Shown here: piece by piece, positions 30,242-37,916 of the stretch
Position numbering within the stretch: position 1 is the stretch's first letter
Layout: every line of letters starts with the position of its first letter
From: an uncultured delta proteobacterium
GTDB taxonomy: Bacteria; Desulfobacterota; Desulfobacteria; Desulfobacterales; SG8-13
DNA length: 64,000 nucleotides
Direction: 5' to 3'
Assembly (NCBI GenBank): GCA_963792945.1
Contig: CAWBYM010000004.1
Coordinates: 333,800-397,799 of the forward strand
Notes under the pieces: model-generated
The model's database searches: none
What the model was told of the DNA's origin: nothing
The model's input: the letters and a program-made list of their open reading frames with translations, nothing else
Translations under genes and position numbers: made by a program

Positions 30242-30763
30242 CTACCTATGGGGTACTTTTTGAATCCTGGCAATGTCATACCCTTGGCCCTGTAAGAATT
30301 GTAGAATGCGGTTGTAGTCATCCGAGGGAATCGACGGATCACGCGCCATAATCCACACATAGTCTCGTTTGGTCCGGCCGATAACGGTTTGCGTGTAGGT
30401 ATCGTTTAGGTAAACAATGCGGTATTCAGCCTTAAAAGGCCAGACAAATTGCATGTCCCAGACTGCGTTTGATGCTTTATCGCGAACAAATCCGCGTGGG
30501 CGATACGTTTTGAGTGGACCGTCAAAACCTCCTTTGTTGAAAGAAAAGGCTGTCTCCACGGAACCGTCATCGTTCAAACGATAGGATTCGATACCGTTAT
30601 AAACGTCTTTTTCAAAAAAAGTCGGAATGCTGGCAACGACGTACCAGGACCCCATGAAACGTTCCAGGTCAACGTTCTCAGCGGTTTGAATGGGGGGCAG
30701 GGTTTGACACCCTTGAATGAATAAAAGGGTTAATAAGCCAAACAAAAAAAGCCTTATACGCAT
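30242..30763 (-). CDS. blc: bacterial lipocalin (Blc) lipoprotein
   Basis: Lipobox FIQGC; VDLERFMGSWYVVASIP...YVWIMARDP. Confidence 0.85.
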   Translation of the reverse strand: MRIRLFLFGLLTLLFIQGCQTLPPIQTAENVDLERFMGSWYVVASIPTFFEKDVYNGIESYRLNDDGSVETAFSFNKGGFDGPLKTYRPRGFVRDKASNAVWDMQFVWPFKAEYRIVYLNDTYTQTVIGRTKRDYVWIMARDPSIPSDDYNRILQFLQGQGYDIARIQKVPHR

Positions 30764-31017
30764 GATATCACCATTAATTCGATTGATCCAAAATAGGGCG
30801 CTGTAAAAAGATGGCGCCCGTCATTTATTTTTCCGCCACCCGATAGTATCCTTTTTAGGATGGTGGCCCTATCAGGGGTTCAGCTTGACACCCGCCGCCT
30901 TTGTTGGCAATATGGGTCTTACTCCTGAAATTTTTGGCAGGGAAAAATGAGCCTGAATGTGACCCTATCGACATCCTCGGCTCCCTTCAATTACTTGTTC
31001 CCACACTGAAGACGAAC

Positions 31018-35010: not shown

Positions 35011-37916
35011 TATTCGGGCACTCCATTCATATCTACGCTAACGGCTGAGGTATTTTGCAGCGCTTTATCCATTTCCACCAAATAGGCGGAATCCATTACA
35101 CTATCATTATCCAAAAACGGGCGAATCTGAAATAAGTTCAATTGTCCTTTGACAAAGCCAAATTCAACGTCAGCCGGCGCGGGGTTGCCCGCATCATCGA
35201 CGATGGAGGGAAATTTTTCGGGCAACTCATTTGAAAACGCTATTAATTGTTTAATTTCTTCCGGTTGCAAGATCGTTTCAGAACCACTCACAGGCAACTC
35301 GACCAGCCCGCCTTCCGGTGACGGTTGTCGCCTTGTGGGTGCCGTTGCCGTGGCCAATACCCGGACTGAAGCATCGCTCCGGTTGATACGCAAAGATTCC
35401 GCCGATTGGCCGTCAACAGCACCGCCGACGCCTTCGTTCACAGCTACCGACAACACATCCTGATCCCCTGTATCGATATCTGCTGTCACCATGACGCCGG
35501 ATTTGTCACTGGCCACCGAGCGTAGCAATAGGATAGATGGATATACATATTGCGGTTTTTCCATGTGCGATTGACGCCATGCAAAGGCCCGTTTCGTAAA
35601 GGGAGATGCCCAGACCTGATTGATGGCACCCATTAAATTATCAAAACCAATCACATTCGGCAGCGTCAGGTTCAAACCTGCGCCGGTAAACCCCGGCAAG
35701 TCTTCTACATTGGTATCTGAACGCACAAAGACGCCAAAATCCGAACGACCGAATGTCTTTTCAAGGGTTTGTTGCAATGCCTTGATAAATGTATCGTCCA
35801 TTTTGGAATTATTTATGATGTCATACAACTCCGCTCTGAAGGCTTCAGTTGCCTGCTGGTGCCTGGCCGGGTCGGATTCCAGCGCATGCAGATGGGCATA
35901 TTGTTCACCCATCCAGTCAAAAATGATCTTGGAGCTCTCTTTATACGGTTTTGCCAGCACTGACTTATGGAAAATACCAAAGGGGATCGCAACACCATTG
36001 GCAACCTTATCCGGGTAAATATGTTTTAGCTCACCCAGTTTTGCTGCTTTAGGGCCAACGATTCTTCCCGAGTCCGTGGCGCGCAGCTGGGTCAAATCGA
36101 CAAATTCACTAAATTCAATGTTCAGTTTTTCTAGATCGGGGCGGATAACGACATTTTTCTCGCTTTTGTCGGCCCCAAAGAATGCACGCCATTTTTCACT
36201 GTCGGCACTAATTTCAACCAGACCTGAGGGCGATACGGCCATGACAATGACCTGGCCATTATGTTTTTGTAATTCAGGGATAATCTCTTCATTCACGGTT
36301 ACGTTGGGGATCCCCAGGTTACGGGCCAGCAGCTGAACATGCGAAAGCGGGTTGCCCTCACCGGCTGTAATAATTCCGGATAATGGGGGCAGATCGGAAA
36401 CCGTTTCAGGCAGCACGTAGATGCCATCCGGTTTTATGGATGCAATGTTTTCAATCGTCATATCGGTGTATAGCGTCCCTCTGACCAGGCCGGGGTTGAG
36501 CGCGTGAAAGCCAACACCAATTTTTTCCCCGAAAAGACTATGCTTAACGCCCGATAATTGATTGACATCGATGGTCAGGCCATTGAGAATCTGTGAGAAA
36601 AACAACAACGGGCTGCCCCGCAATTGATCCTGAATAAAATGAAACACAAGCGGTTCTATTTCCCCCAATTTCTGCATCGAAGCATAAAATTGAAAACGCA
36701 TCCCCTGCGTTCCCCAGCCCGGCACCCTTCCAAGATAGCGCAATTCTTGAATGTAATCCGGCAAAACCACCTCATTGCGGTTCAGTTTGGCGATGGATGC
36801 TTCAACCTGCTGATAGCTTCTGGCATTGATCACGCCGGTGCCATAGGCAGCCAGAACAGAATCGTTTAGCAGGTTGATGCGTTGTTTGCGGGTCATCTTG
36901 GAAAGATTTTCACGCAATATGGTGCTGCTTTTAAAATTGACGGCTTCAATACTCAAACTTAAATCCAGCAAGCTTAAACGTGCACTGGGACTGTTAACTT
37001 TTGGCAATGAATCTCGCATGTCGGCCAAGGCTTTCGCCGTTGTACGGTATTGATTTTCCGGACTGGTGTCCTGGGCCAATGTTTTTGCTACATCCCGCAA
37101 CCACTGTTGCAGCCAGGGTGCTTTGGTGTAAATTTTTGCTTTAGACATCAATAGATCAGAGAGTTCCGGTGCTTTGTAAACAAGGTCGATTTCATCAGCC
37201 AGAAGCAGATACTGGCTGCTATCCGCTACATTTTTTGCATATTCCCGAACCAACTCAGCATCACCTGCGTCAGGAGAACCGTGAATTTTAACCCGCAGCT
37301 CTACAAATCCTTTATCCTTTTCCGCCAGAGATGCAGACATTTGTCTGATTTTTTGAGCAGAAGCGGTGTCTTTCCCGTGAGCCAGAAGCCGTACCCCGCT
37401 GTAGAGACCTAAGAAACGATAGGTAATCCAATCGTTTTGGGCACATAAACCCGTTAATAGTTTTCTGGCCCCGTCTCTTTCATCTTCTTCCTGGATGGCC
37501 CCACGGTAAAATTGCGCTTTTCTCATGATCCATCCATCGTCAATCTGGAAAAGAAACTTCTCGATCAGGATCTGGTTATACTGATCAACAAAGCCGGGTT
37601 CCTGCATCGCTTTTTCAGCATCAAGGGCTGCCAGTATGTTAGCGATATAATAGCCATCACCTCTTATGGTAAGGGTTTGTTCTGTATAATTGCCATGTTG
37701 TCGTCCGCCTCCGTGTTTTTCACAGGCATATGCCTTAGGCGGCAATACACTGCCATCACTGCAAAACCACATCACATTCTTGAAAGGTCCCCGGGGCTGG
37801 GTTTTCATTTGCTGAAGCCAGCTGGAATATTCATTATTAACAGTCGTAGCCGGCGGGCTGCTCGCCCAGAGACTCGAGGGCAGCATTAACAGTAAAGCAA
37901 TTAACAGTGATTTCAT
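35010..37916 (-). CDS. signal-peptide-bearing dikinase-like protein: unknown N-terminal region, then PEP-utilizer swivel (His) domain, then C-terminal PPDK_N/ATP-grasp domain
   Basis: MKSLLIALLLMLPSSLWA/SS. Swivel motif SGIITAGEGNPLSHVQLLARNLGIPNV (His526 codon at 36339..36341). ATP-grasp motifs GPKAAKLGEL, VRSDTNVEDLPGFTGAGLNLT, SGVMVTADIDTGD, DVEFGFVKGQLNLFQIRP. Confidence 0.8.
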   Translation of the reverse strand: MKSLLIALLLMLPSSLWASSPPATTVNNEYSSWLQQMKTQPRGPFKNVMWFCSDGSVLPPKAYACEKHGGGRQHGNYTEQTLTIRGDGYYIANILAALDAEKAMQEPGFVDQYNQILIEKFLFQIDDGWIMRKAQFYRGAIQEEDERDGARKLLTGLCAQNDWITYRFLGLYSGVRLLAHGKDTASAQKIRQMSASLAEKDKGFVELRVKIHGSPDAGDAELVREYAKNVADSSQYLLLADEIDLVYKAPELSDLLMSKAKIYTKAPWLQQWLRDVAKTLAQDTSPENQYRTTAKALADMRDSLPKVNSPSARLSLLDLSLSIEAVNFKSSTILRENLSKMTRKQRINLLNDSVLAAYGTGVINARSYQQVEASIAKLNRNEVVLPDYIQELRYLGRVPGWGTQGMRFQFYASMQKLGEIEPLVFHFIQDQLRGSPLLFFSQILNGLTIDVNQLSGVKHSLFGEKIGVGFHALNPGLVRGTLYTDMTIENIASIKPDGIYVLPETVSDLPPLSGIITAGEGNPLSHVQLLARNLGIPNVTVNEEIIPELQKHNGQVIVMAVSPSGLVEISADSEKWRAFFGADKSEKNVVIRPDLEKLNIEFSEFVDLTQLRATDSGRIVGPKAAKLGELKHIYPDKVANGVAIPFGIFHKSVLAKPYKESSKIIFDWMGEQYAHLHALESDPARHQQATEAFRAELYDIINNSKMDDTFIKALQQTLEKTFGRSDFGVFVRSDTNVEDLPGFTGAGLNLTLPNVIGFDNLMGAINQVWASPFTKRAFAWRQSHMEKPQYVYPSILLLRSVASDKSGVMVTADIDTGDQDVLSVAVNEGVGGAVDGQSAESLRINRSDASVRVLATATAPTRRQPSPEGGLVELPVSGSETILQPEEIKQLIAFSNELPEKFPSIVDDAGNPAPADVEFGFVKGQLNLFQIRPFLDNDSVMDSAYLVEMDKALQNTSAVSVDMNGVPE

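Follow-up and report, generated by a model that had tools for sequence, protein, structure and literature searches.

The stretch of DNA analysed here, hereafter the window, comprises 64,000 nucleotides of contig CAWBYM010000004.1 (assembly GCA_963792945.1, positions 333,800 to 397,799 of the forward strand) from an uncultured delta proteobacterium of the Desulfobacterales. It contains a cluster of four genes encoding a dikinase-like protein of 968 residues (DK968; its homologues are referred to as DK proteins), two serine hydrolases (BL428 and BL333), and a polytopic carrier resembling the TLC family of nucleotide transporters (TLC494). A first-pass annotation, made from the sequence alone, had described the locus as an exported dikinase with the domain order of glucan water dikinase lying beside two beta-lactamase-fold hydrolases, a TLC-type transporter and a lipocalin. 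All open reading frames (ORFs) that it named were found where it had placed them, as were the TAATG in which the stop of DK968 overlaps the start of BL428 and the gap of 325 nt between BL428 and the transporter gene; its observation is confirmed and its interpretation supported in part. The features of the cluster are listed below with the evidence for each.

35010..37916, minus strand: DK968, a predicted exported His-swivel/ATP-grasp phosphotransferase (dikinase-like), 968 residues (ORF, Pfam, homologues, AlphaFold2 model).
37863..37916, minus strand: Sec-type signal peptide of DK968, residues 1–18, with predicted cleavage after LWA (read from the sequence; pattern conserved in homologues).
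36507..37841, minus strand: N-terminal domain of DK968, residues 26–470, presumed to bind the acceptor (homologue search, AlphaFold2, fold search).
36174..36509, minus strand: phospho-histidine swivel domain of DK968, residues ~470–581 (Pfam PEP-utilizers and motif alignment with PpsA 8a8e).
36339..36341, minus strand: codon of the catalytic His526 (arithmetic on ORF coordinates).
35091..36101, minus strand: C-terminal ATP-grasp nucleotide-binding domain of DK968, residues ~606–942 (PPDK_N and Foldseek).
33724..35010, minus strand: BL428, a predicted exported serine hydrolase with the fold of class A beta-lactamases and penicillin-binding proteins (PBPs), 428 residues (ORF, Pfam, stop/start overlap with DK968).
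31914..33398, minus strand: TLC494, a polytopic TLC-like carrier of the major facilitator superfamily (MFS) related to nucleotide transporters (NTTs), subtype A (Pfam TLC, family profile against the PDB).
31018..31902, plus strand (listed ORF from 30901): BL333, a predicted exported PBP-A-like serine hydrolase, 333 residues (Pfam, conservation, PDB match).

Domain organization and export signal of DK968

Residues 619–942 of DK968 match Pfam PPDK_N (E 1.4e-26) and residues 503–558 match Pfam PEP-utilizers (E 1.3e-4). In an alignment with phosphoenolpyruvate (PEP) synthase 8a8e, the His motif EGNPLSHVQLLARNLGIPNV pairs with EGGRTSHAAIVSRELGIPCV, and the ATP-grasp motifs VRSDTNVEDLP, WASPFTKRA, SDKSGVMVTAD and ADVEF...FQIRPF each have a counterpart. 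The His motif comes after the ATP-grasp domain in 8a8e and before it in DK968, and for this reason the permuted order is considered real; DK968 belongs to the PEP-utilizing/ATP-grasp phosphotransferase superfamily, with its domains circularly permuted. The proposal that a swivel His domain, with the His526 codon at 36339..36341, is followed by a C-terminal ATP-grasp domain is thus borne out by both Pfam and the 8a8e alignment. The sequence features that mark membership of the superfamily are present in DK968, namely the Lys of the G-x-K loop, the Arg of VRS, the E-x11-Q-x-R signature, and a mobile phospho-His domain with a (T/S)-H motif. In an alignment of 203 full-length DK members having 29–96% identity to the window protein, H526 and S525 are each kept in 201, and the nucleotide/Mg site is retained nearly throughout (K623, R732, Q930 and R932 in 202 each, E918 in 201). 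The nucleotide site and the catalytic His are intact, and strong purifying selection acts on the ATP-grasp/phospho-His machinery.

Comparison with characterized families places DK968 apart from each of them. The NCBIfam models for PEP synthase, rifampin phosphotransferase (RPH) and PigC/RedH match only its ATP-grasp part and lie far under their cut-offs, PpsA scoring 94 bits against a cut-off of 598 and NF041857 (RPH) scoring 85 bits against 999, the latter again over the ATP-grasp domain only. No PEP/pyruvate-binding TIM barrel (PEP-utilizers_C) was found in the Pfam scan. An AlphaFold2 model of the full-length protein (predicted local distance difference test, pLDDT, 78.7) was used for a whole-protein Foldseek search, which recovered only the ATP-grasp domain, matching PpsA 2ols and RPH 5hv1 (both E ~1e-10), with the small-molecule dikinase HpeI 9goj also among the nearest solved relatives. 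With PpsA and pyruvate phosphate dikinase (PPDK), its best matches in both sequence and fold, DK968 has in common the ATP-grasp motifs VRS..EDLP, WAS..T.RA, SGV..T and E-x11-Q-x-R-P and the His motif G..SH...ARxLGIP, but it differs from them in having the His domain ahead of the ATP-grasp domain, no TIM-barrel domain, and an export signal. With enzymes of the RPH, HpeI and phenylphosphate synthase type it shares an ATP-grasp domain, a swivel His and a non-TIM acceptor domain presenting a hydroxyl, and its match scores to RPH are comparable to those for PpsA; RPH, however, has its His domain last, is cytoplasmic, and possesses a rifampin-binding domain to which the N-terminal part of DK968 shows no match. 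Because a defining feature of each family fails, DK968 falls outside the PpsA/PPDK, RPH and glucan water dikinase families. A search of 5.8 billion proteins returned more than 1,400 relatives of ~970 residues, which are named in the databases only as hypothetical or as "PEP/pyruvate-binding domain-containing protein".

The N-terminus of DK968 reads MKSLLIALLLMLPSSLWA/SS, and a signal-like hydrophobic segment is present, by a crude criterion, in 178 of 196 full-length homologues, so that the Sec signal noted initially in a single protein proves to be a trait of the family. The usual pattern is a short basic n-region followed by a hydrophobic h-region and mostly an AxA-type site, and over the first 25–50 residues it is this pattern that is conserved and not the sequence. 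Of the 203 aligned members, 202 have retained Cys52 and Cys65. Taken as a family property, the N-terminal pattern strongly suggests that DK968 is exported.

The region following the signal had been described as ~470 residues without a recognizable motif, and indeed no Pfam match was obtained on residues 1–500. The model of residues 26–470 (pLDDT 79.8) consists of a small Cys-containing beta module (C52, C65, H74) followed by ~20 helices, for which Foldseek found no fold match in the PDB (best E 0.65, TM <0.2). An exhaustive HMMER search with residues 20–500 gave 610 matches among 1.84 billion cluster representatives, and in the best 150 of these 610 the match always lies at or near the N-terminus of a ~970-residue protein or of a shorter fragment; within those best 150, the domain thus appears to be tied to the DK architecture. 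A known cytoplasmic substrate-binding domain, which would have spoken against the first-pass annotation, was matched neither by Pfam nor by the homologue search nor by Foldseek. Positions in the N-terminal domain that are kept in at least 95% of DK members include R138, R191, R208, H212, R301, R343 and R433, and this richness in Arg and His would suit an anionic acceptor or docking of the phospho-His.

The likeness to plant and algal glucan and phosphoglucan water dikinases (GWD/PWD) was a point at which the first-pass annotation held only in part. The order is common to both, with an acceptor-binding N-terminus, a phospho-His domain and a C-terminal PPDK_N ATP-grasp domain. Unlike GWD/PWD, DK968 has neither CBM45 nor CBM20 nor any carbohydrate-binding fold, its N-terminal domain having a family-specific all-alpha fold; it is bacterial, bears a Sec signal, and is closest in sequence, by its ATP-grasp domain, to bacterial PpsA and RPH. 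A carbohydrate-binding N-terminus was considered and rejected on the absence of a Pfam match, the confinement of the domain to the DK architecture among the best 150 matches and the absence of a PDB fold match. Since no carbohydrate-binding module was found, the likeness to GWD is topological only.

Partner hydrolases, carriers and conservation of the cluster

Both hydrolases match Pfam Beta-lactamase2 (BL428, E 1.2e-6; BL333, E 1.2e-14), and the SxxK, SxN and KSG motifs reported for them proved invariant among homologues: S129xxK132, S210xN212 and K348SG350 in BL428 (30 homologues), and S131xxK134, S167xN169 and K282SG284 in BL333. BL428 also carries an invariant Cys pair (C355, C363). Hydrophobic N-termini are found in 47 of 48 BL428 homologues and in all 45 BL333 homologues, so that DK968 and both hydrolases appear to carry conserved export signals. 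The true start of BL333 is probably Met40 at 31018 (MHLFLTFLITVTLYCLSSFA) and not the TTG at 30901.

The triad, the Beta-lactamase2 match and the export signals are shared with PBP-A (Tll2115) and class A beta-lactamases, from which the two proteins differ in several respects. BL428 exceeds a class A enzyme in length by ~130 residues; it contains large insertions, its invariant Glu residues (E308, E329, E381) are far from the spacing of class A Glu166, and it has no sequence relative in the PDB at E <0.1. The BL333 alignment is without any invariant Glu, and the region in which class A Glu166 would be expected reads GGLWVGK; the best PDB relative of BL333 is the cyanobacterial PBP-A Tll2115 (2j7v, E 0.004). 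Because PBP-A is its closest solved relative and an invariant Glu is missing at the Glu166 position, BL333 is less likely to be a true beta-lactamase than an enzyme of the DD-peptidase type or one that performs acyl transfer. Both hydrolases further differ from those enzymes in being dedicated to a dikinase. In two gammaproteobacterial metagenome-assembled genomes the cluster holds a further BL428 paralogue, a divergent one with 43–45% identity to the window BL428 (L001:19539-21005(-) and L030:19445-20749(-)).

When each GTDB species was represented by a single genome, a pattern scan found a DK protein encoded in at least 588 species. The hosts are mostly Gammaproteobacteria and Burkholderiales, with some Desulfobacterales and Myxococcaceae; the gammaproteobacterial hosts include Halieaceae, Methylococcaceae, Chromatiales, Wenzhouxiangellaceae, Steroidobacteraceae and relatives of sulfur-oxidising symbionts, and cultured hosts are Parahaliea aestuarii, P. 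maris and P. mediterranea as well as Agaribacterium haliotis (loci L035, L037, L058 and L015). When the neighbouring ORFs of 80 fetched loci were clustered without bias, the only widely conserved families were DK (79 loci), BL428 (62), BL333 (48) and the TLC-like carriers (37). Among the 40 loci having at least 6 kb on both sides of DK, BL428 is present in 39, BL333 in 35 and a TLC-like gene in 24. In 58 or more of 72 loci BL428 is the next gene downstream of DK and is read from the same strand, and it is often start/stop-coupled to DK, several of the remaining 14 appearing to be start/stop overlaps miscounted by the distance rule. Scores of independent genomes contain this gene set, and although the genes have been rearranged, the four families are still found together in Gamma-, Beta- and some Deltaproteobacteria. 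No DK homologue was found on 72,556 plasmids at E <1e-20; the module is consequently regarded as a chromosomal trait, and a mobile element or resistance island was rejected. Scans for a Pho box and for sigma-E promoters upstream of DK in 71 loci gave the same result as shuffled controls, and in the promoter/terminator scan of the window promoters occur at chance level.

Other genes recur in the cluster less widely. Exported phosphatases are found in a minority of genomes, among them an e(P4)-like acid phosphatase of class B whose N-terminus resembles that of a lipoprotein (8 + 7 loci, e.g. L003:18794-19726(+) and L083:3321-4253(+)) that either adjoins BL333 or lies immediately upstream of the TLC-like carrier. 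A fusion of SDF (sodium:dicarboxylate symporter) and SBP_bac_3 in one protein of 743 residues is found within the dikinase operon of 17 loci, mostly from Betaproteobacteria (L011:4482-6713(+) and 16 others, e.g. L021, L024, L025, L036, L039, L045 and L049). An exported protein of ~500 residues without a Pfam family occurs in 6–7 loci (L021:7445-8944(+), L011:7865-9496(-), L022, L025, L036, L047); it has many invariant residues, such as QQDRIGN and DNDAG, and its sole PDB match is a weak profile match at the extreme C-terminus to the catalytic-loop region of a protein kinase (2y7j, E 4e-4). An exported calcineurin-like metallophosphoesterase adjoins this protein in L021, L022, L011 and L047 and lies several kb from it in L025.

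The assignment of TLC494 to the NTT-related carriers rests on Pfam TLC, where 25.1 bits, obtained over the C-terminal part only, exceed the gathering score of 21, and on a family profile of 20 members run against all PDB chains. At E <0.5 the profile matched two distinct sequences only, 9j3n (E 4.5e-14, full length and collinear over positions 13–461) and 9j3j (E 1.6e-10), both "ADP,ATP carrier protein 1" structures and the latter a chloroplast carrier; no other MFS protein was matched, so that a grouping with non-nucleotide MFS families, which would have contradicted the first reading of this gene, is not seen. The motifs FW.F.(N/A)(E/D)...KR and K..K..ID..R.G are common to the TLC494 family and NTTs. 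TLC494 thus resembles the known TLC/NTT proteins (Npt/Tlc of Chlamydia and Rickettsia, plastid NTT1; TC 2.A.12) in its collinear full-length alignment and its Pfam score, but differs from them in very low similarity (TIGR00769, an equivalog-type NCBIfam model, gives 24 bits against a cut-off of 387), in its free-living or symbiotic proteobacterial hosts, and in the residue at the position of the exchanger lysine, which is Asp in subtypes A to C. Five TLC-like subtypes are linked to the cluster, at differing positions:

Subtype A: the window type; usually adjoins BL333 (32 of 45).
Subtype B: Betaproteobacteria; upstream of DK.
Subtype C: ~720 residues, a HEAT-repeat fusion; usually adjoins BL428.
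Subtype D: ~424 residues, more canonical (Pfam TLC E 1.8e-23); always adjoins BL333 (7 of 7).
Subtype E: adjoins DK.

That different members of a single rare superfamily have been recruited repeatedly speaks for a functional link of these carriers to the cluster and not for inherited synteny. The linkage is also seen from the carrier side: 47 of 80 metagenome-contig loci of the TLC494 family hold DK, BL428 or BL333, and where the flank measures 3 kb or more, cluster genes are present in 30 of 46, including DK homologues at only 32–33% identity, the acid phosphatase being the only other recurrent neighbour. The linkage between carrier and cluster is therefore reciprocal, in keeping with the conserved neighbourhood that the first-pass annotation had made its test. 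Large TLC-like carriers of ~720–766 residues occur inside the cluster (L001:14483-16642(-), L003:14255-16420(-), L066:15422-17719(+), L046:6669-8891(-)), often beside a second, shorter TLC-like gene; HEAT-repeat Pfam matches lie in the C-terminal extension of the L046 (740 residues) and L066 (766 residues) proteins and are absent from that of L001. Such HEAT fusions distinguish some cluster paralogues from NTTs.

A periplasmic phosphotransfer reading and its rivals

The reading that we tentatively favour, while according it somewhat less than an even chance, is that the cluster forms a conserved chromosomal module for periplasmic phosphotransfer, with a core of DK968, BL428 and BL333, usually accompanied by one or two TLC-like carriers that would move the nucleotide. 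A minority of genomes would add a periplasmic phosphatase or the SDF-SBP amino-acid/dicarboxylate transporter. After Sec export of DK968, His526 would receive the beta-phosphate of a nucleoside triphosphate, and the swivel domain would deliver it to an acceptor. This acceptor, bound by the N-terminal domain with its many Arg and His residues, would most likely be a hydroxyl on an anionic envelope component or on a peptide-like substrate. The two PBP-A-like hydrolases would act on the substrate of DK968, either before or after phosphorylation, and the TAATG coupling probably keeps BL428 in a fixed ratio to DK968. At the inner membrane the TLC-like carriers would export triphosphate and/or take in spent nucleotide and inorganic phosphate (Pi), and the class B acid phosphatase or metallophosphoesterase, where present, would remove phosphate or recycle AMP. 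Within this scheme, supply of the triphosphate by the carriers is a weaker point and is doubtful. A more specific version, in which triphosphate exported by outward TLC-type carriers powers a secreted dikinase phosphorylating an envelope polymer, e.g. at the sugar hydroxyls of peptidoglycan, which the PBP-A-like hydrolases and some phosphatases then remodel, must be called unlikely. In starch breakdown a dikinase acts with hydrolases and phosphatases on one polymer, a set that parallels the dikinase, hydrolases and occasional phosphatases of the cluster.

Several observations weigh against a module of this kind, or against the part that the carriers would play in it. On the established view the periplasm lacks ATP, and ATP released there could leak through porins. 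A dikinase yields AMP and Pi, whereas characterized NTTs exchange ATP for ADP and Pi. The PEP-utilizers score of DK968 (21.9 bits) is 1.2 bits short of the 23.1-bit cut-off. In 16 of the 40 well-flanked loci the surrounding 10 kb hold no TLC-like gene; one of these belongs to a relative of 77% identity, which has the genes for DK, BL428 and BL333 beside chitinase and PKD-repeat genes. Where the window-type carrier is present, it is mostly BL333 and not DK that it adjoins. The nucleotide-contact residues of NTTs, taken here from a mutagenesis paper of 2008 (PMC2606016), raise a further difficulty. A lysine reported to be conserved in all plastid and bacterial ATP/ADP transporters (K527 of AtNTT1, K446 of PamNTT1) contacts the gamma-phosphate or Pi and is needed for the handling of both ATP and Pi, and the K446E substitution in PamNTT1 blocks Pi transport and lowers ATP import (PMC2606016). 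At the Lys of the motif (R/P)(F/L)GKSGG, on which we infer from residue numbering that K446/K527 falls, TLC494 carries an invariant Asp447 (VRIGDGLAAL), and subtypes A, B and C are alike in this respect, whereas the cluster-linked subtypes D and E retain Lys. TLC494 thus appears to fail one defining feature of ATP/ADP(+Pi) exchangers, and because Asp447 replaces the exchanger lysine, the case for the putative export of ATP by TLC494 is weakened.

The main rival, which we consider rather unlikely, accepts a periplasmic module but not nucleotide transport: the TLC-like carriers would import the product, or export the precursor, that the PBP-A-like hydrolases handle, much as AmpG brings in muropeptides, and DK968 would use another phosphoryl donor or act on the transported compound. 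Such a role would agree with Asp447 in subtypes A, B and C, with the very low identity of the carriers to real NTTs, and with the position of the window-type and D-type carriers beside BL333, while the betaproteobacterial SDF-SBP_bac_3 transporter in the same operon suggests uptake of small hydrolysis products. It would, however, leave a fully conserved nucleotide/Mg site without a nucleotide source; among solved structures the carrier family resembles NTTs only, subtypes D and E keep the lysine, and e(P4)-type class B acid phosphatases, which in characterized cases are nucleotidases, adjoin the carrier in several loci. A very unlikely explanation is inactivation of an antibiotic or xenobiotic in the periplasm, with DK968 as an exported analogue of RPH acting on a toxic hydroxyl compound beside two beta-lactamase-like hydrolases. 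The ATP-grasp domain is equally close to RPH and PpsA, small-molecule dikinases, HpeI 9goj for one, are among its nearest relatives of solved structure, and both partners have the beta-lactamase fold; yet the genes are chromosomal with no plasmid copies found, and their presence in at least 588 species, with linkage held down to 32% identity, points to a housekeeping trait and not to a mobile resistance island. Furthermore, BL333 shows no invariant Glu at the site of class A Glu166 and is closest in the PDB to the DD-peptidase-like PBP-A, and the problem of periplasmic ATP persists.

Less probable again is that DK968 works in the ATP-forming direction, converting a periplasmic phospho-donor, AMP and Pi to a nucleoside triphosphate that the TLC-like carrier imports, as a form of nucleotide or phosphate salvage. 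Reversibility of PEP-utilizing enzymes is established for PPDK, periplasmic phosphatases occur in the cluster, and characterized NTTs import ATP (PMC2606016; also a preprint). Against this, neither the periplasm nor the environment is known to contain a plausible high-energy phospho-donor, the two hydrolases are given no role, a Pho-box enrichment is not found upstream of DK in the 71 loci, and Asp447 speaks against triphosphate binding. We give the smallest chance to the explanation that the hydrophobic N-terminus is not a working export signal and that DK968 is an ordinary cytoplasmic dikinase that merely lies beside envelope genes. Although 18 of the 196 homologues failed the crude signal criterion, the n-h-c pattern with AxA-type sites is kept while the sequence is not, the Cys pair is near-invariant, the DK gene is translationally coupled to that of an exported partner, all conserved soluble partners bear signals, and the N-terminal domain always begins 25–50 residues into the protein.

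Two other systems resemble the cluster in carrying out, outside the cytoplasm, chemistry that normally needs activated phosphate. Lig E is a periplasmic ATP-dependent DNA ligase; it has no dedicated carrier, and neither Lig E nor LpxT is homologous to any part of the cluster. In LpxT, the only periplasmic phosphorylation found in the literature search, the donor is undecaprenyl pyrophosphate and not ATP (PMC2229476). The search, made on full text, yielded no description of an exported dikinase, of the DK cluster, or of ATP export by TLC carriers, and in a preprint of 2026 the mitochondrial carrier is still given as the sole ATP exporter known.

Other features of the window and wider significance

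Next to the cluster, the window encodes the lipocalin:

30242..30763: lipocalin, a Blc-type lipoprotein (Lipocalin_2, E 2.7e-37; lipobox FIQGC).

The first-pass annotation had counted it as part of the system by analogy with blc and ampC, a suggestion that does not hold, as the lipocalin is found in none of 160 related loci; both it and an ADP-ribosylglycohydrolase were rejected as cluster members on that count (0/160) and are considered incidental neighbours. Just upstream of the DK968 promoter region, an ORF of 111 residues (38264..38599, plus strand) corresponds to the last ~100 residues of a dihydroxy-acid/6-phosphogluconate dehydratase (ILV_EDD_C 94–191 of 191) and is apparently a gene remnant. 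Two adjacent short ORFs on the minus strand (28648..28896 and 28886..29134) resemble a frameshifted SBP_bac_3 protein with a signal peptide, probably a pseudogene. The G+C content is 0.55–0.61 at 22000..30000 and 0.57–0.58 at 48000..54000, compared with 0.44–0.51 elsewhere; the dikinase cluster begins exactly at the drop in G+C at ~30 kb, which mosaic ancestry or an assembly join could explain, and the high-GC stretch is crowded with overlapping spurious ORFs. An ORF of 669 residues at 24126..26135 (minus strand) joins a radical SAM domain, helix-hairpin-helix motifs and DUF4130, which are usually distributed over two neighbouring genes, a putative pair for DNA modification or repair.

In the textbook view there is no ATP in the periplasm, and envelope processes must draw on the cytoplasm or on pre-activated donors for their driving force. 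The present cluster links a dikinase-like enzyme bearing an export signal, across hundreds of species, to relatives of the only ATP/ADP carriers known from bacteria. Read most conservatively, it represents a large uncharacterized enzyme family with a new domain, two new subfamilies of the PBP fold, and several TLC-like subfamilies, and for each new family the cultured strains (Parahaliea, Agaribacterium) offer a clear genetic handle. If DK968 is active in the periplasm, this would imply an unrecognized route of energy or phosphoryl supply to the envelope together with a new covalent modification of an envelope component, and if the carriers export nucleotide, the system would be the first of its kind in bacteria. 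Should both be true, a nucleotide-powered phosphorylation of the envelope would be a bacterial counterpart of the cycle of phosphorylation, hydrolysis and dephosphorylation of starch, served by the first dedicated bacterial system for ATP export, and would be categorically new.

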